Source: an uncultured Bifidobacterium sp. (GTDB taxonomy: Bacteria > Verrucomicrobiota > Verrucomicrobiia > Limisphaerales > JADLHS01). From it: a DNA stretch of 64,000 bases. The DNA lies in the NCBI GenBank assembly GCA_964594985.1, contig CAZQNQ010000010.1, forward strand, positions 71,466-135,465. The letters are read 5' to 3'. Both the position numbers and the translations under genes were made by a program. Below are positions 54,875-64,000 of this stretch, in pieces. Within the stretch, counting starts at the first letter, position 1. Each line of letters begins with the position of its first letter. The notes beneath the pieces were generated by a model. It saw only the letters and a list, made by a program, of their open reading frames with translations. It did no database searches and was not told the DNA's origin.

Positions 54875-57358
54875 ATGAGTGCCAATCACAAATCTCCCCC
54901 AGCGGCCACCCCGGTAAGCGGTTGTCTCACGCGGGCGGTGACGTCGGTCTTGATGGAAGAACCGACGCTGGAGGCGGTGACGATTGATCCCGGACACAAA
55001 AAAATCTCGGTCGCCACGCTCGGCCGCACCGACGAATCCCGCCTGCGCGCCCGCATCAGCGCCAAACTGGCGGAAGCCGAGCGCGCGGACAGTCCGCACG
55101 CGTGCCAGTTGCTCATCACGGGCGGCAGTTGCGCGAACTGCGCCACCCCGTTGAGCGAGCCGGAGCGCAATCAATTCACCATCCGCCACGACCACGGGGC
55201 CATGACCGTCGCGCGCGTGACCTGCCCGACGGCCCCAAAATTCTGGCGGTGGCGCGATCTGCCCTTTCCCAAGATTGTCCAGCGCGACGTCGAGTTTCTC
55301 GAACACGCGGACGAAGATCACGATCATCACCACGCGGACGAATGGAAATTGCAACTCGTGCTCGCAGTCGCTTGTGGCGGGTTGGGTTTGCTCGCGGCGT
55401 ATGCCGTGCCGGCGGCGTGGCGCGTGCCGGTGTTTGTCTTGAGTTATCTCGCGGGCGCATGGTTTCCGGCGGAAGAAGTCTGGGAACGGTTACGCCAGCG
55501 GGCGATTGATGTCCACTTCCTGATGCTCGCCGTCGCGGCGGGCAGCGCGAGCATCGGCGCGTGGGGTGAAGGCGCGACGTTGCTATTTCTCTTCTCGCTG
55601 TCCGGTGCGCTGGAACATTACGCGTTGGGGCGAACGCAAAAGGAAATCCGCTCGCTGTTCCGCGAAGCGCCGAAGACCGCGACGGTACTTGAAGCGAATG
55701 GCGGCGAGCGCGAGGTCAAAGTGGAATTGCTGAAAACCGGGATGCGGTTGCTGGTGAAGCCCGGCTCGCAATTCCCCGTGGACGCGGAAGTCCTGAAAGG
55801 CGGCACGGCGGCGGATGAATCCAACCTCACCGGCGAAGCGACCCCCGTGGAAAAAGCCGTTGGTGACCCGGTGCTGGCGGGTACAATCAATCTGTGGGGC
55901 GCGGTGGAAGTCGGCGTGCTGCGACCAGCGGCGGAAAGTTCGCTCCAGAAGATCATCAAGCTCATCAAAGACGCGCAGCACCAGAAAGCCCCGTCGCAGC
56001 AGTTCACGGACAAGTTCAGCACGTATTACACGTACGGCGCGTTGGCGTTGTCGGCAGGGATGTTCTTTGTCTGGTGGTTGGGATTTGGGCTGACACCGTT
56101 CACGTCGGAGGGCGAGACCAAGAGCGCGTTTTATCGGACCATGACGCTGCTCGTGGTGGCGTCGCCGTGCGCGCTGGTGTTGTCCATTCCGTCGGCGGTG
56201 CTGGCGGCGATTGCGTGGGGCGCGCGACATGGCGTGTTGATCCGCGGCGGCGCGGCGGTGGAAAAGCTGGCGGACGTGAACATCGTGGCGCTCGACAAGA
56301 CCGGCACGTTGACCACGGGCGAATTACGCGTGGAAAAGGTGGAGAGCTTTCCGCCGGGCCGCGAAACCGAGGTCGCCCAACTGGCCTACTCGCTCGACCG
56401 GCTTTCGACGCATCCGCTCGCGCGGGCCGTCACGCGCCACGGCAAGCAGCAAGGGTTGACGCCGCTGGAATTTGAACACTTTGAATCCGTGACCGGCCAA
56501 GGCGTGAAAGGGCGTTGCGCGCAAGGCGAGTGTTTGGTTGGCAGGCGCGAGTGGGTTTTGGAGTCAGTGAAAACACTCGCCCTCACCCCGGCCCGCTCCC
56601 CCAGGGAGAGGGAGAACGTAAAGAATGCGCTCGTAAATCCGGCGGCTGCGGAATCCTTTCAACGCGGGAACAATGAACTCCCTCTCCTGGGGGAGAGGGC
56701 CGGGGTGAGGGCGGACTCTCTTTCCGAAGGCAAAACAACCGCCTCTGGCACTTCCGAAGTCTGGCTGAACAACGATGATTTGCTGGGCCGCATCGTGCTG
56801 CGCGACGATATCCGGCCCCAGGCCCAGGGCGTGGTGGACGAACTCAAGCGGAGCGGCCTGCGCACGGTGGTATTGACCGGGGATCGCCGCGCGGCGGGCG
56901 AACATCTCAAAACCGAATTGCATCTCGACGAGGTTCGCGCCGAGTTGAAGCCGGAAGAGAAAGTCGCGGCGATCGTGGCGTTGAGCGATGGCCACAATCG
57001 CGTGGCGATGATCGGCGACGGCGTGAACGACGCGCCGAGTCTGGCGGCAGCGCACGTCGGCGTGGCAATGGGCGCGCGGGGTTCGGATGCGGCCCTGGAA
57101 CAGGCGGACGTCGTGTTGATGCACGACCGGCTGGAGAATTTTCTGGCGGCGTTTCGCTTGAGTCAGCGGGCGCGACGCATCATCCGGCAGAATTTGTTCG
57201 TGTCGCTCGGCACGGTGGCGGTGCTGGTGGTCTTCGCGCTCATCGGGAAGATTCCATTGCCCGTGGGCGTGGTCGGCCACGAAGGCAGCACGGTGATTGT
57301 GGTGATGAACAGTCTGCGGCTGCTCTTCGGCGAAGCGAACCCGAAGGCCAGGAGCTAG
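54875..57358 (+). CDS. Heavy-metal P1B-type ATPase, P1B-4-like (SPC / HEGST signatures), carrying an in-frame repeat insertion
   Basis: DKTGTLT, GDGVNDAP, TM motif VVASPCALVLSIP and terminal VGHEGSTVIV. No classical GMTCxxC HMA domain. Residues ~569-613 are encoded by a family B repeat. Confidence 0.88.
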   Translation: MSANHKSPPAATPVSGCLTRAVTSVLMEEPTLEAVTIDPGHKKISVATLGRTDESRLRARISAKLAEAERADSPHACQLLITGGSCANCATPLSEPERNQFTIRHDHGAMTVARVTCPTAPKFWRWRDLPFPKIVQRDVEFLEHADEDHDHHHADEWKLQLVLAVACGGLGLLAAYAVPAAWRVPVFVLSYLAGAWFPAEEVWERLRQRAIDVHFLMLAVAAGSASIGAWGEGATLLFLFSLSGALEHYALGRTQKEIRSLFREAPKTATVLEANGGEREVKVELLKTGMRLLVKPGSQFPVDAEVLKGGTAADESNLTGEATPVEKAVGDPVLAGTINLWGAVEVGVLRPAAESSLQKIIKLIKDAQHQKAPSQQFTDKFSTYYTYGALALSAGMFFVWWLGFGLTPFTSEGETKSAFYRTMTLLVVASPCALVLSIPSAVLAAIAWGARHGVLIRGGAAVEKLADVNIVALDKTGTLTTGELRVEKVESFPPGRETEVAQLAYSLDRLSTHPLARAVTRHGKQQGLTPLEFEHFESVTGQGVKGRCAQGECLVGRREWVLESVKTLALTPARSPRERENVKNALVNPAAAESFQRGNNELPLLGERAGVRADSLSEGKTTASGTSEVWLNNDDLLGRIVLRDDIRPQAQGVVDELKRSGLRTVVLTGDRRAAGEHLKTELHLDEVRAELKPEEKVAAIVALSDGHNRVAMIGDGVNDAPSLAAAHVGVAMGARGSDAALEQADVVLMHDRLENFLAAFRLSQRARRIIRQNLFVSLGTVAVLVVFALIGKIPLPVGVVGHEGSTVIVVMNSLRLLFGEANPKARS
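56579..56712. repeat. Family B MITE-like palindromic element embedded in frame in the ATPase CDS
   Basis: GCCCTCACCCCGGCCCGCTCCCCCAGGGAGAGGG...ACGCGGGAACAATGAACTCCCTCTCCTGGGGGAGAGGGCCGGGGTGAGGGC is collinear with the intergenic copy at 20430-20581. Confidence 0.85.
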
Positions 57359-58102: not shown

Positions 58103-59122
58103 CTAGGCGGAGGGTAATTTTTCGCGGTACCGGGTGGGCGATTCGCCGGCAATGCGGCGGAAGACCCGGTTGAAGTGGCTCAACGACTGGAAGCCTGCCG
58201 CAAAGGCGACCTCGCTGATGCGCAGGTTCGGATTCAGCAGGAGGTTCTTCGCCTTCTCGACCCGGACGCGGGAGAGATAATCCGTGAAGTTCAGGCCGGT
58301 GGCCTTCTTGAACATCTTGCAGAAATAAAACGTGCTCGTGCTCACGGCCTTCGCCACGTCGCTCAGGGAAATCTCCTCGGCCTGATGGGTCGCGATGAAT
58401 TCCTTGGCCTTGGTGATGGCGGGCGGCTCGGAGTTGGCGCGGCGGACGAGCAGTTGATTGCTCACCAGCGCGAGGTGTTGCGCGAAGATGGTGAGCAGGT
58501 GCAGGACCGACTCGTATTGCTTCGGATTGATGACGCGCGTCTGGAAATAGGCTTCTTCGAGTTTGCGCAGGTCGGTCTTCCAGCCCCAATCCGTCAGTTG
58601 TTGCGAGAGTCTGGAGAACTGGGCCTTGGTGGGTTTCTGCGTGAAGACCTGACCGGTCTGGAGGAAGCCGAGGAGTTCGTCGCCGATGGAGACGGGCACG
58701 CCGGTGTCGCACAGACCCGCAAAACATTTCACCGTGCGCGGACCGATGCCGATCTGGTCGGCGATCTTCTGCTGGGTTTCGAGGCAGGCGGCACAGGCGC
58801 GATTTTGTTCGGCCATGATGAGGCAGAACGGGTTTTCCGATTTCTTCCCGCCGTGCGCGCGCTGGAACGATTCGACCGGGCGCAGGCTGAGTGGCAGGCC
58901 GGTGGTCTTGGTGAAGGCGCGTTCGTAGTCCTGGTAGATCTGCGATTGCGATAGGGCCTCGATGAACTTTTTGTTGTCGCCTCGTTCCACAACGTCAACG
59001 TAGCGAGTGCATCGCCGGGGGACAAGTGGCAAAAGGTCTGGCGGCAAAAGAGGGTGATGATTCGGCAACTGAGGCGGAGCAGTGGCCGAAGTCCCGGCGT
59101 AGTCTGCGAGTGAATAGCACAA
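58103..59122 (-). CDS. PocR sensory domain / AraC-family transcriptional regulator
   Basis: PocR-like [15 protein letters not shown]...FCLIM...CAACLE...[14 protein letters not shown]-terminal Ara[36 protein letters not shown]. The true start is probably the GTG at 58990, because 59122 would leave only 5 nt to the divergent USP gene. Confidence 0.8.
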
Positions 59123-59127
59123 GCTCC

Positions 59128-59640
59128 ATGAAACAAGCGGCGGTCAAAAAAACCAGAGTCGAGGCAGGCCCGGCGGCGCAGCCAAAGTTCCAGCGCATCC
59201 TGGTGGCGGTGGATTTTTCCGAGGAAAGCCGGAGCGCCCTCGCCTGCGCGGCGGAACTGGCGGCGCAGTTCGACGCCTCGCTGACGCTGGTGCATGTGGT
59301 CGAACCGCATTTTGGTCCGCCGGATACCGATGTGCCGGCGCTGACGGGCGAGGTGTCGGATGCCGAGGAATATGCCGAGGCCAAACTGGAGTTGAACGCG
59401 CTCGGGGAACAGATGCTCGGCCCGTGCCGGGTGGTGGAAACCGTGGTGCGGGCCGGGTTGGCCTTCTTCGAGATCACCGAGGCGGCCAAGGCCCTGGGGG
59501 CGGATTTGATCGTCGTGGGCACCCACGGTTACACCGGCTTGAAACGCGCCCTGCTCGGCAGCACGGCGGAAAAGGTCGTGCGCCATTCGCCGTGTCCGGT
59601 GCTGGTGGCCCGCGCCAGCTACGGCGAAATCATGATATGA
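59128..59640 (+). CDS. Universal stress protein (UspA family)
   Basis: [11 protein letters not shown] and [30 protein letters not shown]. Confidence 0.85.
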
Positions 59641-60140
59641 ACTTCACCACGCACATCCCGGGATCGCAGGACGGCAACGGGAGGGCGAAGGGCGTGATGG
59701 AAGGCGACTGGCGTTCGCATCCGTTCGTGCGCGGCATGAGTGCCGACATCCTGGCCGCCCTGACCGCCTGCGCCATGCCGACGGTCTTCGACGCCAACCA
59801 CCTCATCTTTCGCGAAGGCGAAATCGCCAACCGTTTTTATCTCCTGCTCGAAGGTCACGTGCAACTCGAAGCCGAAGCCATTGATCGCCCGGGTGTGCCG
59901 GTGGATCAACTCAGCGCGGGTGATGTGCTCGGCTGGTCGTGGTTGTTCCCGCCCTACACCTGGAACTTCACCGCCCGCACCCTCGAGCCGGTCAAGGCGG
60001 TCTTCTTCTACGGTACCTGGCTGCGCGAACGCAGCGAAACCGATCTCGCGCTCGGGTACGAATTGATGCGGCGCACGGCGATGGTGTTGATGCGGCGGCT
60101 GCAGGCGACGCGCCAGCAGTTGGTGCAAGCCACGTCCTGA
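59637..60140 (+). CDS. Stand-alone cyclic-nucleotide-binding domain protein
   Basis: The ATG overlaps the USP stop. [21 protein letters not shown]...GDVLGWSWL. No C-terminal HTH. Confidence 0.75.
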
Positions 60141-60284: not shown

Positions 60285-60485
60285 TCAATCCTCATTTCCC
60301 GGCCAGTCGGTCGAGGACTGCTGAGACTCTTGCAGGAACAGCTCCAGACACTGCGGGCGACAAAATATCACCTGCCGGGAATCCAGCCGCAGCCGGGCGA
60401 ACCATTGTCCGTAGGCAATTTCCTTCCCGCAGAAAAAACAGGTCACAACCTCCCCGGCGGCGGCCGACGCGCTGGTCGCACTCAT
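60285..60485 (-). CDS. Small TRASH/zinc-ribbon-like protein
   Basis: 66 aa with C-x2-C-x22-C-x3-C (CFFCGKE...IFCRPQC). 4-nt overlap with the upstream cytochrome gene. Confidence 0.6.
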   Translation of the reverse strand: MSATSASAAAGEVVTCFFCGKEIAYGQWFARLRLDSRQVIFCRPQCLELFLQESQQSSTDWPGNED

Positions 60486-62233
60486 AAATCCTGACGATAA
60501 TCAGAAGGAGCGTCTGGTTTGGCGGCCGCTTCGGGGGCCGGCGCTGGTTTCTCCAACGCGCGCTCTTCCTCCTGCCAATGCTCCGAAACCTTGCCGTCCC
60601 AGCACGCGAGATTCAGCGGATACACGTCCGGATCGAACATCACGTGATAGAAATGCCAGACGATGATGGCGAGACACGCGAGGATCGCTTCGTAGTAATG
60701 GATCGTCAGCGCGACATCCACCACCCAGCGCGGCAGCCACTGCGTCACTTCCATCTTGAACCACACGGCCAAGCCGGTGACGCCCATGATGATCGTGCCC
60801 CAGATCACCGCCCAATACTCCATCTTCTCCGCGTAACCGAAGCGTCCGTTCTGCGGCTTCTCCTTCCGCAACCCAACCAGCCAGCGCACCGTGCCGACGA
60901 TGTCCGCCAGATCCTTTTTCACGGGCAGGAAATCAATCACCAGCTTGCGTCCGTCCTTCGAGACGACGAGATAGATCAGGTGATACAACCCGACCAGCAA
61001 CAGCACCACGCCCGCGACACGATGCGACCAGCGGCGGAACGGCTCGCTCGAACCCATGATTTTCGCCAGCCAGGAATCCGGCCACTTGAGCGCAAAGCCC
61101 GTGACGGCCAGCGCAATGAAGCTCAATGCCAGCACGGCGTGTTGCCAGCGTTGCGCCAGATTCATGCGCTGGACCGGACGACCCGACGAACGCAGGTGCG
61201 CCTTCACCTTCTTCACCAGCAGCAGAAAGTTGTGCATGAACATGCCGCTGATGGTGCCGATGATGAGCAGCAGATAAATCTTCCGCACCCACCAGTTCAC
61301 CTGGCTGCCGACGTCGTCGTCGCGCCGCAATTCGCCCGTCAGGTTGACGTGCATTTTGCTCAGGGCAAATTGCTCGGTCGCGCCCGGGTGACATTGGCCG
61401 CACGTCGCCACCAGGTTGTTCTTGTGAACGGTTGAAGCGGGATCAGCCGACGGCAGCACCTTGTGATAACCGTGGCAGCTTGCGCAGTTGGCCGCCAGCG
61501 TTGAACCATACGAACTCGCCAGCCCGTGATAGCTGTCGAAGAACGTCTGCACGCGGTCGGCGGGGAGATTATATTTCGTATTCAACCGTTCCGAACCGTG
61601 ACAACGGCTGCACACGTCGGCGGATAATTTGCGCGCCGCGCCGACGCTGAGCGATTTGATCTGATGCTCCAGATGACAGTCAATGCAGGTGGGCGCGGCG
61701 CGAACGCCGCGGGCCAGCGCCCGACCATGCACACTCGCCGCGTAATCGGCGGTGGCCTGTTCGTGACACGCGCCGCAGGTCTCCGCCTGCCGCGTGATGT
61801 GCAACGGCGAAGCCGGCGATGTCGGCGGCAGGATCAGATGCGAGTCATGGCAATCCTGACAGTTGGGCGCGCTGCCGTCACCGGCTTTCACCGCGCGACC
61901 ATGAACACTCGCCTCGTAAGTCCCCATCTGCCGGACGTGACATTGCCGGCAATCCACCCGCCGGGCCGCGATGTTGTCGTCAGGATGCTGGTCGGTCAGG
62001 TCCGCGTGGCAACTGGCGCAGGTGTTGGTGCTGTGCGCCGACGCCTTGAGTTTGGCGGCGTCCACAAACAGTCGGATCTCTTTCCCGGCGGCGTTGGTTT
62101 TGGTGAGCGTGTTGTCCGCGTGACATTCGAGGCAGTCGGCATCCTTGATCGCCGCAAAAGTAGAGAGTGTCAGAGCGCAGCCTGCCCACACCCCAACAAT
62201 CCATGGCAACGCTGCGTTTCCTCTGACACTCAT
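60482..62233 (-). CDS. Fusion of a nine-heme c-type cytochrome domain with a membrane b-type cytochrome (HydC/FdnI/PhsC-like) domain
   Basis: Nine CxxCH motifs (CLECH, CASCH, CRQCH, CQDCH, CGACH, CIDCH, CSRCH, CASCH, CGQCH) in the first ~290 aa. Then 4-5 TM helices with conserved His (RWQHAVLALSF..., HRVAGVVLLL..., WGTIIMG..., HYYEAILA...). Confidence 0.85.
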   Translation of the reverse strand: MSVRGNAALPWIVGVWAGCALTLSTFAAIKDADCLECHADNTLTKTNAAGKEIRLFVDAAKLKASAHSTNTCASCHADLTDQHPDDNIAARRVDCRQCHVRQMGTYEASVHGRAVKAGDGSAPNCQDCHDSHLILPPTSPASPLHITRQAETCGACHEQATADYAASVHGRALARGVRAAPTCIDCHLEHQIKSLSVGAARKLSADVCSRCHGSERLNTKYNLPADRVQTFFDSYHGLASSYGSTLAANCASCHGYHKVLPSADPASTVHKNNLVATCGQCHPGATEQFALSKMHVNLTGELRRDDDVGSQVNWWVRKIYLLLIIGTISGMFMHNFLLLVKKVKAHLRSSGRPVQRMNLAQRWQHAVLALSFIALAVTGFALKWPDSWLAKIMGSSEPFRRWSHRVAGVVLLLVGLYHLIYLVVSKDGRKLVIDFLPVKKDLADIVGTVRWLVGLRKEKPQNGRFGYAEKMEYWAVIWGTIIMGVTGLAVWFKMEVTQWLPRWVVDVALTIHYYEAILACLAIIVWHFYHVMFDPDVYPLNLACWDGKVSEHWQEEERALEKPAPAPEAAAKPDAPSDYRQDL

Positions 62234-62360
62234 ACGCCCTCACCGTCGCAGGCCGGAACAGAAACGGCTCCGCGCGCGTTGGCGATTTGCGCCCGGATTT
62301 TGGCGGTGCTGCTCCGCATCAGATCGGAAGCAGGCGACCGGCGGCCGGATGAGGTGTTTT

Positions 62361-62508
62361 AGAACAGTTCGCAAAATGTCTGGCGGAACCGAATTCCCCG
62401 CACCCGGCCGGCGGCCACCCTCTCCCCATCGGATGGGGAGAGGGCCGGGGTGAGGGGCGTTTTGCCAGCCCATCGTTTCCGACCTTCTTTTTGCAGTACG
62501 CTCCAACC
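62361..62508. repeat. Family C repeat, copy between the two cytochrome genes
   Basis: Nearly identical to 49818-49966. A further imperfect periodic-arm hairpin follows at about 62510-62677. Confidence 0.85.
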
Positions 62509-62722
62509 GCCGATGAACGCAAATGGAAAACCGCGAACCGCGCCAAAAACGCGAACGGAATTGCCCTCCATGCTTCATCCTTCTCAATTCCGATCATCCT
62601 CCGGGATTGGCGGTTCAAAACTCTTTGCGTTCTTTTGTGGCAAATGAATCCGGGTTCATCGGTGTTGATCCGTGGTCAAAGGTTTTCCCCGGCAACGGGC
62701 CGATGCGGAGATCGGCACTCCG

Positions 62723-63997
62723 TCACCACGCGCCGCCGGTGTGACAATCATTGCACGCGCCATCCACCGGATCGCCGGGATGCTGGAACTCCTGGCCGCG
62801 CGGCGAAATCTGATGCAACTCATCGCCCGCACCTTGTGACAGGATCGTGTGACACGATTGGCAGCCGCTGGCGGGAATTTTCTTTTTCGTCTCCGCCACG
62901 AGATGTCGGTCGTCGTGACAACGGAAGCAGCCCGGCCAGTCCTTGTGCCCGATGTTCTCGGGATACGCGCGCCAGTCGGCCTTCATCTCCGGGAAGAAGT
63001 TCTGGCGATAAATGGTCTGCACCTCGGTGATGAGCTTGTCCACCTCGGGTGCTTCGGGATACGTCATCCAGAGCGCGACTTCGATTTTGTCGAGCGCTTC
63101 TGTTTCCGTCTCATACTTCTGCGCGAGCAAGGCGACCACGTTGGATTTCACCCAAGGCAGTTGCAGATTAATCTTGCCGGCGCTGAGGGCGAAATTGACG
63201 GCGTCGTTCGGCGAACGAAAGCGATGCGACGGGCGGTTGTGGCAATCCATGCAATCCATCAGGCGGATTTCGTAACCACTGATGTCGTTGGTGAACTTGG
63301 GCACGCGATACTCCGTGACGACGCCCTTGGCATCCGTGACGCGCACCCACGGGATGACCTGCCGGCGATCATCGGTGGCGATGTATTCGATCTTGTTGTC
63401 CTGATTGACGTGCCAATGGATGCCGCCGACCGGGCCGTGCGTCGGGTCCGCGCCGCCCACATTGAGCGAGAGCCGCACGGCGTACGGCGTGTTGGTTTCG
63501 TCCGCGAGAAAAGATTGATACGTGCGGTCAATATTACCTGAAAACTTCTGCGGCCAGTGACACTGCTCGCAGGTTTCACGGGCGGGACGGAGATTGTGGA
63601 TCGGCGTCTTGATCGGGCGGTTGTAATCACCGGTCATCACCCCGACGAGCTGGTGGACGCCATTCATCTTGGCTTTCACAAAGGCTTCCACGCCATGGCC
63701 GACGTGACATTCCACGCAGGCGACCCGCGCGTGCGGCGAAAACTGATACGCGGTGAACTCCGGTTTCATCGGCCCGTGACAGGCCTGGCCGCAGAATTGC
63801 ACCGACTCGCTGACGTGATAGGTCTGGTAGCTGCCGATGGCGGTGCAGAGCAGAAAGATCACGCTGCCGACCACGAACCACCGGAGTTTCTTGCGGTCGG
63901 CGGGACGCGACAAGTCCACCGAGAGCAATCCCGGGCCATCCGCAACGCCGGAGCGTCGCTCGCTCCGGCGTTGCCACCATGCTCCCAACCCAACCAT
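62723..63997 (-). CDS. Membrane-anchored multiheme c-type cytochrome, NapC/NirT-like (7 heme motifs)
   Basis: N-terminal TM WFVVGSVIFLLCTAIG. Six CxxCH motifs (CVECH, CEQCH, CMDCH, CFRCH, CQSCH, CNDCH) plus one CGQACH (CX3CH). The start is 3 nt from the window edge and could lie further upstream. Confidence 0.8.
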   Translation of the reverse strand: MVGLGAWWQRRSERRSGVADGPGLLSVDLSRPADRKKLRWFVVGSVIFLLCTAIGSYQTYHVSESVQFCGQACHGPMKPEFTAYQFSPHARVACVECHVGHGVEAFVKAKMNGVHQLVGVMTGDYNRPIKTPIHNLRPARETCEQCHWPQKFSGNIDRTYQSFLADETNTPYAVRLSLNVGGADPTHGPVGGIHWHVNQDNKIEYIATDDRRQVIPWVRVTDAKGVVTEYRVPKFTNDISGYEIRLMDCMDCHNRPSHRFRSPNDAVNFALSAGKINLQLPWVKSNVVALLAQKYETETEALDKIEVALWMTYPEAPEVDKLITEVQTIYRQNFFPEMKADWRAYPENIGHKDWPGCFRCHDDRHLVAETKKKIPASGCQSCHTILSQGAGDELHQISPRGQEFQHPGDPVDGACNDCHTGGAW

Positions 63998-64000
63998 GCC

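Follow-up and report, generated by a model that had tools for sequence, protein, structure and literature searches.

What do two adjacent multihaem cytochrome genes at the very end of a 64-kb window of a Limisphaerales genome encode, and are their products counterparts of ImcH and CbcL, the quinol oxidases of Geobacter? The window, i.e. the whole stretch of DNA analysed (G000:C10:71466-135465), belongs to a genome of 5.24 Mb labelled G000. A preliminary description compared the upstream gene product with ImcH (GSU3259) of Geobacter sulfurreducens, reportedly characterized by Levar in 2014, and the downstream one with CbcL (GSU0274), and regarded the pair as a candidate module for metal or extracellular respiration. 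Our analysis of the window, of the DNA beyond its end and of related genomes suggests that the locus represents the inner-membrane end of a gene cluster for extracellular electron transfer (EET), conserved in Verrucomicrobiota, with outward flow of electrons, a reading to which we assign a probability of about 0.7. The module itself is real and coherent and all its parts are of known kinds; EET is its probable function.

An ImcH family protein and a CbcL-like bc-cytochrome

The upstream gene encodes the heptahaem protein P0124, of which the open reading frame (ORF) listed at window positions 62723-63997 is only the 3' part; the full ORF (L002:1189-2664, minus strand) specifies 491 amino acids (aa) and would reach the window-equivalent position 64198. 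The ImcH family has been defined by three N-terminal transmembrane (TM) helices, an adjacent atypical CX3CH motif, six CX2CH motifs and a length of 495-519 aa (Zhong & Shi, PMC6295460). P0124 possesses hydrophobic segments at residues ~17-47, 48-74 and 104-126, which correspond to three N-terminal TM helices (13-35, 45-67 and 100-122 in GSU3259), and seven haem sites, namely CX3CH at 136 and CX2CH at 161, 210, 316, 424, 446 and 482. The CX2CH motifs of GSU3259 are at 157, 206, 312, 429, 449 and 487 (Table S3 of PMC6295460, read as 0-based); the first four haem sites of the two proteins differ by a constant offset of +4, and the motifs are colinear. The N-terminal region also matches the NapC/NirT family (2.6e-10), and a search of the PDB returned no ImcH relative.

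For comparison we used six ImcH and five CbcL proteins of "Geobacter type", a term that here denotes proteins picked by length and by motif positions agreeing with Tables S2/S3 of PMC6295460, not by name, from 401 genomes (G041 plus 400 more) sampled from the Desulfobacterota-type phylum to which a Desulfobaccales match belongs. P0124 is 36.6-39.6% identical to the six ImcH sequences according to BLASTP (E 1e-112 to 1e-127) and 38-41% identical over ~478 residues aligned with MAFFT, which falls inside the published range of 31.5-49% for homologues outside the Geobacter group (PMC6295460). In the reciprocal search these proteins find P0124 alone in G000. The CX3CH site (FCGQACH, residues 135-141, ten residues past TM3) is invariant in both ImcH alignments and in the six Geobacter-type sequences. 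A pocket for haem 1 and menaquinol, comprising E127, H137, K173, Q179 and Y188, has been proposed for GSU3259 (bioRxiv 10.1101/2023.05.03.539133); its equivalents E131, H141, K177 and Q183 in P0124 are invariant, and Y192 aligns with Y or W. Based on the colinearity of TM helices and motifs, the identity of 38-41%, the reciprocal best matches and the retained pocket residues, we assign P0124 to the ImcH family. The preliminary view of a membrane-anchored, ImcH-like protein with seven haem motifs is thus borne out by every sequence-level feature of the family, with one CX3CH and six CX2CH behind three TM helices in the full 491 aa.

We also considered and rejected the nitrite reductase accessory protein NrfH as an identity for this gene: it scores 48.6 bits against an NrfH cut-off of 134, and a separate NrfH-NrfA pair also speaks against such a role. 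The latter (four and five haems, respectively) is encoded on C12 (G000:C12:126864-128997).

The downstream gene encodes P0002, a protein of 583 aa composed of a signal/anchor segment, nine haem-c sites (CX2CH at 34, 72, 95, 125, 153, 183, 208, 250 and 278), five TM helices with a dihaem-b core of the FdnI/HydC type, and a hydrophilic C-terminal tail. The b domain (residues 355-533) matches Ni_hydr_CYTB (PF01292, 5.9e-16), the formate dehydrogenase gamma model TIGR01583 (8.7e-17) and the PDB chain 1kqf_C (2.7e-9), in agreement with the fusion of nine CxxCH motifs to a HydC/FdnI-type domain that had been proposed for this gene. The name "formate dehydrogenase gamma subunit" carried by the gene in the JGI annotation was rejected, as there are no FdnG/H genes nearby and nine c haems are fused to the domain.

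CbcL is the only strong match of P0002 in the Geobacter-type genomes searched. The CbcL orthologues recovered from them (617-618 aa) have motifs at 35, 58, 83, 106, 130, 159, 187, 230 and 258, i.e. at the positions of Table S2 of PMC6295460 shifted by exactly one. P0002 is colinear with the five Geobacter-type CbcL proteins over 570 aa, and its His334, His365, His512 and His527 are invariant in this comparison, while a His near 404 is one column off. The identity is only 29-30%, the lowest edge of the range of 28.6-100% published for pairs within the CbcL/MtoC/MtrH family (PMC6295460). Six TM helices are found in most members of that family (PMC6295460), as opposed to five in P0002 (residues 319-534), a number that also appears in a low-confidence AF2 model (pLDDT 48); past the last haem motif P0002 has ~305 residues, compared with 360-369 in Geobacter-type CbcL and in an 11-haem paralogue found in relatives of G000. 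This second verrucomicrobial paralogue (705 aa, 11 haems, 6 TM) is 36-38% identical to Geobacter-type CbcL (E ~1e-137) and is of the type given for Verrucomicrobia in Table S2 of PMC6295460 (e.g. Oter_2603, PAW67162.1).

A maximum likelihood (ML) tree of the membrane domains of 80 bc-fusions, rooted at the midpoint only, separates two clades with 100/100 support. Clade A comprises Geobacter-type CbcL and the 11-haem verrucomicrobial paralogue. Clade B unites P0002 and its orthologues from Verrucomicrobiota with genes that adjoin imcH in Acidobacteriota, Ignavibacteriota and Bacteroidota. In view of its five rather than six TM helices, the identity of 29-30% and its position in a separate deep clade, we regard P0002 as a distant relative of CbcL that shares its architecture and not as a CbcL orthologue. 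The initial comparison of this gene with CbcL therefore stands for the domain architecture and for the best Geobacter-type match and fails for orthology. The sole multihaem PDB match of P0002 is 28pb_A, a 278-aa "Cytochrome c" other than Geobacter CbcL, which aligns with residues 34-270 (E 4.9e-16; 1.2e-6 with Geobacter-type CbcL) and may represent a structure of a clade-B-like haem domain.

The porin-cytochrome conduit beyond the window end

ORFs with three or more haem motifs number 12 in the whole genome, and six of them are packed within 13 kb (C10:131950-145176), so their clustering is not due to chance. The order along the minus strand is: a secreted 9-haem cytochrome of 541 aa, an 8-haem MtrA/DmsE-like lipoprotein, a 26-strand MtrB-like barrel, a class-I monohaem cytochrome c, ImcH, the CbcL-like bc-cytochrome and a small zinc ribbon. 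Thus, the outer conduit for which the preliminary description advised a search is encoded directly past the window end. Neither a placement of the two proteins in unrelated multihaem families nor the lack of an outer conduit, the outcomes that would have counted against the initial reading, was observed.

The monohaem cytochrome (111 aa) is encoded 113 bp upstream of imcH on the same strand. The barrel candidate P0125 (732 aa, C-terminus YRF) matches no Pfam or NCBIfam family. Its AlphaFold model, built with nine orthologues, is a 26-strand barrel (mean pLDDT 73.7, most strand blocks >90), for which the best PDB match is MtrB (6r2q_B; E 1e-15, TM 0.63/0.70), followed by TonB-dependent receptors with TM scores of ~0.4. 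The gene for the lipoprotein-like cytochrome, with seven CX2CH and one CX4CH, is 18 bp from that of P0125; its product is matched by the DmsE/MtrA model with 7e-46 and by the GSU2203 decahaem model with 9e-52, in either case under the family cut-off. The gene for the 541-aa cytochrome, which has a signal peptide and nine CX2CH, overlaps the lipoprotein gene by 4 nt, and the gene for a nine-haem protein of 772 aa that contains TSP3 repeats lies upstream in divergent orientation. Both secreted 9-haem proteins carry domains of the MtrC/MtrF type.

On the strength of its gene content and of the modelled barrel we identify this conduit with the porin-multihaem cytochrome (MHC) cluster of bog Verrucomicrobia, in which a porin of at least 20 strands, an eight-haem periplasmic cytochrome and an extracellular MHC were described and EET was proposed (He et al. 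2017, PMC5615132). In that model the inner-membrane step was left unspecified ("ET in IM") and no homology to Mtr was reported (PMC5615132).

The part of the cluster that lies in the window, and the genes next to it, are the following (window positions):

62723-64000, minus strand: ImcH-family heptahaem cytochrome of the inner membrane (3' 1278 nt of a 1476-nt gene)
62234-62722, no strand: spacer of 489 bp separating both cytochrome genes, with a dispersed repeat of ~150 bp (blastn)
60482-62233, minus strand: CbcL-like bc-cytochrome fusion P0002, 583 aa (haem motifs, Pfam, TIGR01583)
60285-60485, minus strand: four-cysteine zinc-ribbon ORF (TRASH/L24e-like), 66 aa (weak L24e/TRASH-type matches)
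59424-60140, plus strand: cNMP-binding protein of the CRP/FNR type (PF00027, 5.1e-11)
59026-59640, plus strand: universal stress protein (USP; PF00582, 4.9e-38)
58103-59122, minus strand: regulator with a PocR sensor and an AraC-type HTH (PF10114, 1.1e-21; PF12833, 3.9e-25)

The cytochrome genes and the 66-aa ORF are all encoded on the minus strand. The zinc ribbon (C-x2-C-x22-C-x3-C) overlaps the stop of the bc-cytochrome gene by 4 nt and adjoins only two (those of G017 and G006) of the 14 other P0002-type genes tested, i.e. only copies from close relatives, which makes it a lineage-restricted accessory; the TRASH-like small protein noted initially is thus present as an ORF with the expected cysteines, with weak family matches and a narrow distribution. 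The other neighbours had been named correctly, as confirmed by Pfam. The cNMP-binding gene, whose true start is probably downstream of the listed one, runs divergently from the cytochrome genes, a synteny retained in G017, G008 and G006, and the USP gene is likewise syntenic in relatives. At the syntenic position in G017 there is no room for a PocR/AraC gene, so the tie of this regulator to the cytochrome cluster is weak.

Three further observations concern the surroundings. A P-type (E1-E2) ATPase gene (window 54875-57358, plus strand) is syntenic beside the USP and cNMP genes in the closest relative G017, with 82% identity. Close to the contig end, ~1.1 kb past the divergent gene for the 772-aa cytochrome, is a gene for a tyrosine recombinase/phage integrase (L002:13291-14439, minus strand). 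The barrel ORF (L002:3639-5837, minus strand) has ~27 extra residues between its start (MKKKARV...) and the signal-peptide core as compared with the G017 orthologue; the corresponding DNA (L002:5720-5800) is a palindromic repeat of ~80 bp with >100 matches across the genome, which looks like an in-frame insertion in the signal-peptide region, unless the true start is downstream.

G000 also carries a second porin-cytochrome pair (G000:C1:150414-153991; L022:5703-8995), in which an MtrA-like cytochrome (seven CX2CH counted), 42% identical to the 8-haem protein of the cluster, precedes a barrel that shares 27-29% identity with P0125. Within the 15 kb examined around this pair, neither an ImcH gene nor a CbcL-like one was found.

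Distribution of imcH, its CbcL-family neighbours and the conduit

ImcH is present in 20 of the 23 genomes from the same genus and in roughly half of the order's remaining families, and the barrel accompanies it in 28 of the 29 ImcH-positive genomes, G000 included. Genes for the barrel and the MtrA-like protein are adjacent to imcH or a few kb apart from it in G000, G017, G008, G006, G035, G037 and several public metagenome-assembled genomes (MAGs). The synteny of the cluster is retained across the genus and the order, which argues for its vertical inheritance. The cluster of G017, the closest relative, runs from the barrel through the monohaem cytochrome, imcH, the 11-haem paralogue and the P0002 orthologue to the zinc ribbon.

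A scan of species-representative genomes with a profile built on six sequences returned at least 593 ImcH-family loci from many phyla, of which the best 80, labelled by group from record titles and gene content, were used for counts of adjacency. A CbcL-family gene adjoins imcH on the same strand in 45 of these 80 loci. It is found immediately upstream of imcH in all 16 loci from Acidobacteriota, downstream in 15 loci from Verrucomicrobiota, and next to it in nine from Ignavibacteriota/Bacteroidota; in 12 more loci such a gene lies within 10 kb, and most of the others have short flanks. None of these best 80 loci is labelled Geobacter, and among the top 150 library representatives and 10 named clusters there is a Desulfuromonadales MAG and no Geobacter. 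Among the Geobacter-type genomes cbcL is next to imcH in two of five. Our findings contradict the novelty that the preliminary description had implied for the adjacency of the two genes: outside G. sulfurreducens it is the rule. Moreover, verrucomicrobial homologues of ImcH and CbcL had been listed by 2018 (PMC6295460), and a description of the phylum's porin-cytochrome cluster dates from 2017 (PMC5615132).

Five of the loci (L033, L034, L043, L050 and L077) come from MAG records titled Bifidobacterium or Bifidobacteriaceae, yet they contain the verrucomicrobial-type monohaem cytochrome, imcH, 11-haem cbcL and barrel genes, and their sequences nest within verrucomicrobial clades in the tree. 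The taxonomy of these records is probably wrong.

In the verrucomicrobial loci a monohaem cytochrome c gene precedes imcH by <600 bp in 23 of 28, a peculiarity of this phylum. ImcH, a class-I monohaem cytochrome c and a bc-cytochrome of clade B (5 TM, 9-13 c haems) may constitute a conserved module distinct from Geobacter CbcL. This module would be the real route by which electrons leave the quinol pool towards the porin-cytochrome conduits of Verrucomicrobiota, Acidobacteriota, Ignavibacteriota and Bacteroidota, and its two quinol oxidases might work in physical contact or else as a potential-dependent "two-gear" pair. We offer this only as a tentative suggestion, more doubtful than the assignment of the locus to EET; no description of such a module was found in the literature searched.

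Electron flow, rival explanations and comparison with known systems

From the genes present, the families of their products, the conserved ligands, the fold of the barrel and the synteny described above we infer the activities, partners, direction of flow and regulation that follow. Dehydrogenases would reduce menaquinone, the product of the futalosine pathway. ImcH would oxidise menaquinol at a site on the periplasmic side next to the CX3CH haem 1 (His/Gln pocket), with protons released to the periplasm, and the CbcL-like protein would provide a second, probably lower-yield exit from the quinol pool, passing electrons from two b haems to nine c haems. One or more periplasmic cytochromes would then deliver them to the MtrA-like cytochrome threaded through the barrel, and the surface multihaem cytochromes to Fe(III), Mn(IV) or humic quinones. 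The neighbouring CRP/FNR-type protein and USP probably tie expression to oxygen or redox state. The genome contains futalosine menaquinone genes and ResB, a protein of cytochrome c maturation. Cultured Limisphaera, which seem to belong to the order of this genome, use Fe(III) citrate and ferrihydrite for respiration and have MK-7 as the sole quinone (PMC13608581).

The same hardware could in principle work inward, in the manner of mtoAB-mtoD-mtoC/cymA clusters, with electrons from extracellular Fe(II) or reduced humics passing via the monohaem cytochrome to a terminal oxidase, while ImcH and the CbcL-like protein feed the quinone pool by reverse flow. The cluster does encode a class-I monohaem cytochrome that recalls MtoD, the monohaem cytochrome encoded within mto clusters, and at least four genes for haem-copper oxidases are present in the genome. 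MtoC of Fe(II) oxidisers belongs to the CbcL superfamily, and homologues of CbcL, MtoC and MtrH are held to be bidirectional; ImcH, however, has so far been implicated in quinol oxidation only (PMC6295460). Large secreted multihaem cytochromes such as the two found here, with their MtrC/MtrF-type domains, are typical of reducers, and Fe(III) is reduced by Limisphaerales in culture (PMC13608581). Outward transfer is favoured by these cytochromes and by the known role of ImcH, and we consider the inward direction improbable. To our knowledge, large secreted multihaem cytochromes are absent from Mto clusters.

Likewise unlikely, in our opinion, is a role of ImcH, the CbcL-like protein and the monohaem cytochrome as a general menaquinol:cytochrome c oxidoreductase branch for periplasmic or oxygen respiration, with an incidental linkage to the porin-cytochrome genes. 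Such a role would fit the frequency of ImcH and clade B pairs in Acidobacteriota, many of which are aerobes, and the presence of the monohaem gene upstream of imcH in verrucomicrobial loci whether or not a barrel gene is nearby; proteins belonging to the NapC/NirT family such as NrfH, NapC, TorC and CymA indeed supply many periplasmic reductases (bioRxiv 10.1101/2023.05.03.539133). It is at odds with the nearly constant company of ImcH and the barrel, with the location of the barrel and MtrA-like genes adjacent to imcH or a few kb from it in several relatives and MAGs, and with the fact that NrfA of this genome has an NrfH of its own.

The assignment of the locus to outward EET nevertheless has to be weighed against several points. 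The haem-copper oxidase genes (at least four, on C6, C17, C12 and C13) mean that the organism is not a dedicated anaerobe, and together with NrfH-NrfA they indicate a facultative, versatile respiratory chain. The class-I monohaem cytochrome belongs to a type whose potential is usually high, and it fits Fe(II) oxidation of the Mto type or delivery to an oxidase as well as outward transfer. The extracellular location of the "secreted" 9-haem cytochromes is deduced from signal peptides and analogy only. The sequencing runs that contain the locus are all DNA metagenomes, with no RNA runs among them, and the selection of Geobacter-type proteins by features and not by name also bears on the comparisons made above. 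Finally, the 489-bp spacer between imcH and the P0002 gene bears the dispersed repeat, and the 705-aa 11-haem CbcL-clade paralogue has left no remnant in that spacer, and no copy of it was found elsewhere in the G000 assembly. The "operon" of the preliminary description is thus a putative one: the two cytochrome genes share a strand, and a spacer with a many-copy element lies between them. The core of this repeat gives 263 blastn match rows genome-wide and is present in many other spacers; in spurious ORFs it reads as PHPxPLP...GEG-like strings.

The last two points could be taken to mean that the cytochrome genes are mere neighbours here, in a cluster of which a part has been uncoupled or silenced by loss of the paralogue present in G017 and by insertion of repeats, among them the apparent in-frame one at the 5' end of the barrel ORF. 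We regard this as very unlikely: all ORFs are intact, with every haem motif and ligand kept, and G008 shows the same adjacency of imcH and a cbcL-like gene, likewise without the 705-aa paralogue. The preferred reading, outward EET, remains probable, and with it the metal or extracellular respiration proposed initially.

Verrucomicrobiota of the order Limisphaerales are abundant in soils, bogs and lakes, and the first demonstration of iron respiration by a cultured member of the phylum came only in 2026, with the inner-membrane step not named. The locus suggests how the verrucomicrobial porin-cytochrome conduit might be linked to the menaquinone pool, namely by way of an ImcH orthologue and a CbcL-like paralogue whose genes lie in that cluster. 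If the clade B module were true, the potential-switching logic of Geobacter would extend to very abundant heterotrophs of soil and freshwater. In marker-based surveys and annotation pipelines, two deeply separate clades would be lumped together if every "9-haem + cytochrome b" fusion were taken for CbcL. The practical value lies in annotation and in the choice of targets for genetics in cultured relatives, and not in a new kind of system. What is refined with respect to earlier work is the tie of ImcH to the verrucomicrobial porin-cytochrome cluster, the division of CbcL-like proteins into two clades and the lack of the CbcL-clade paralogue in this assembly.

Comparison with the known systems reveals the following pattern of shared and divergent features. 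P0124 resembles ImcH GSU3259 in its three TM helices, the CX3CH directly past TM3, the six CX2CH, the spacing of the first four haems, the length (491 vs 507 aa) and the pocket residues. It differs in a linker between haems 4 and 5 that is ~9 residues shorter, and in being part of a porin-cytochrome cluster, where its gene immediately follows that of a monohaem cytochrome c, whereas no mtrAB or mtoAB was seen adjoining imcH by Zhong & Shi (PMC6295460). P0002 shares with CbcL GSU0274 the N-terminal periplasmic domain, the nine CX2CH, the fused HydC/FdnI-type dihaem-b domain and the kept histidines, but has five TM helices with a hydrophilic tail in place of the sixth, is 29-30% identical and falls into a separate deep clade, the 11-haem paralogue being the closer relative of CbcL.

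The porin-MHC cluster of He et al. 2017 is of the same phylum, with Limisphaerales bog MAGs among the related loci, and likewise combines a large barrel with an adjacent eight-haem cytochrome, along with an extracellular multihaem cytochrome for which the secreted 9-haem proteins are candidate counterparts here; unlike in that description, ImcH and a CbcL-like protein are encoded in the cluster studied here, and the barrel models as a 26-strand MtrB-like fold. With MtrCAB of Shewanella and the mtoAB-mtoD-mtoC clusters of Gallionella and Dechloromonas, the cluster shares the MtrB-like 26-strand barrel, an MtrA/DmsE-like cytochrome, and the presence of a quinone-linked cytochrome of the CbcL superfamily together with a monohaem cytochrome c. 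In contrast to these systems, its MtrA-like protein has eight rather than ten haems and sub-threshold family scores, its barrel lacks a Pfam or NCBIfam match, its putative surface cytochromes are not MtrC orthologues, and ImcH is added.

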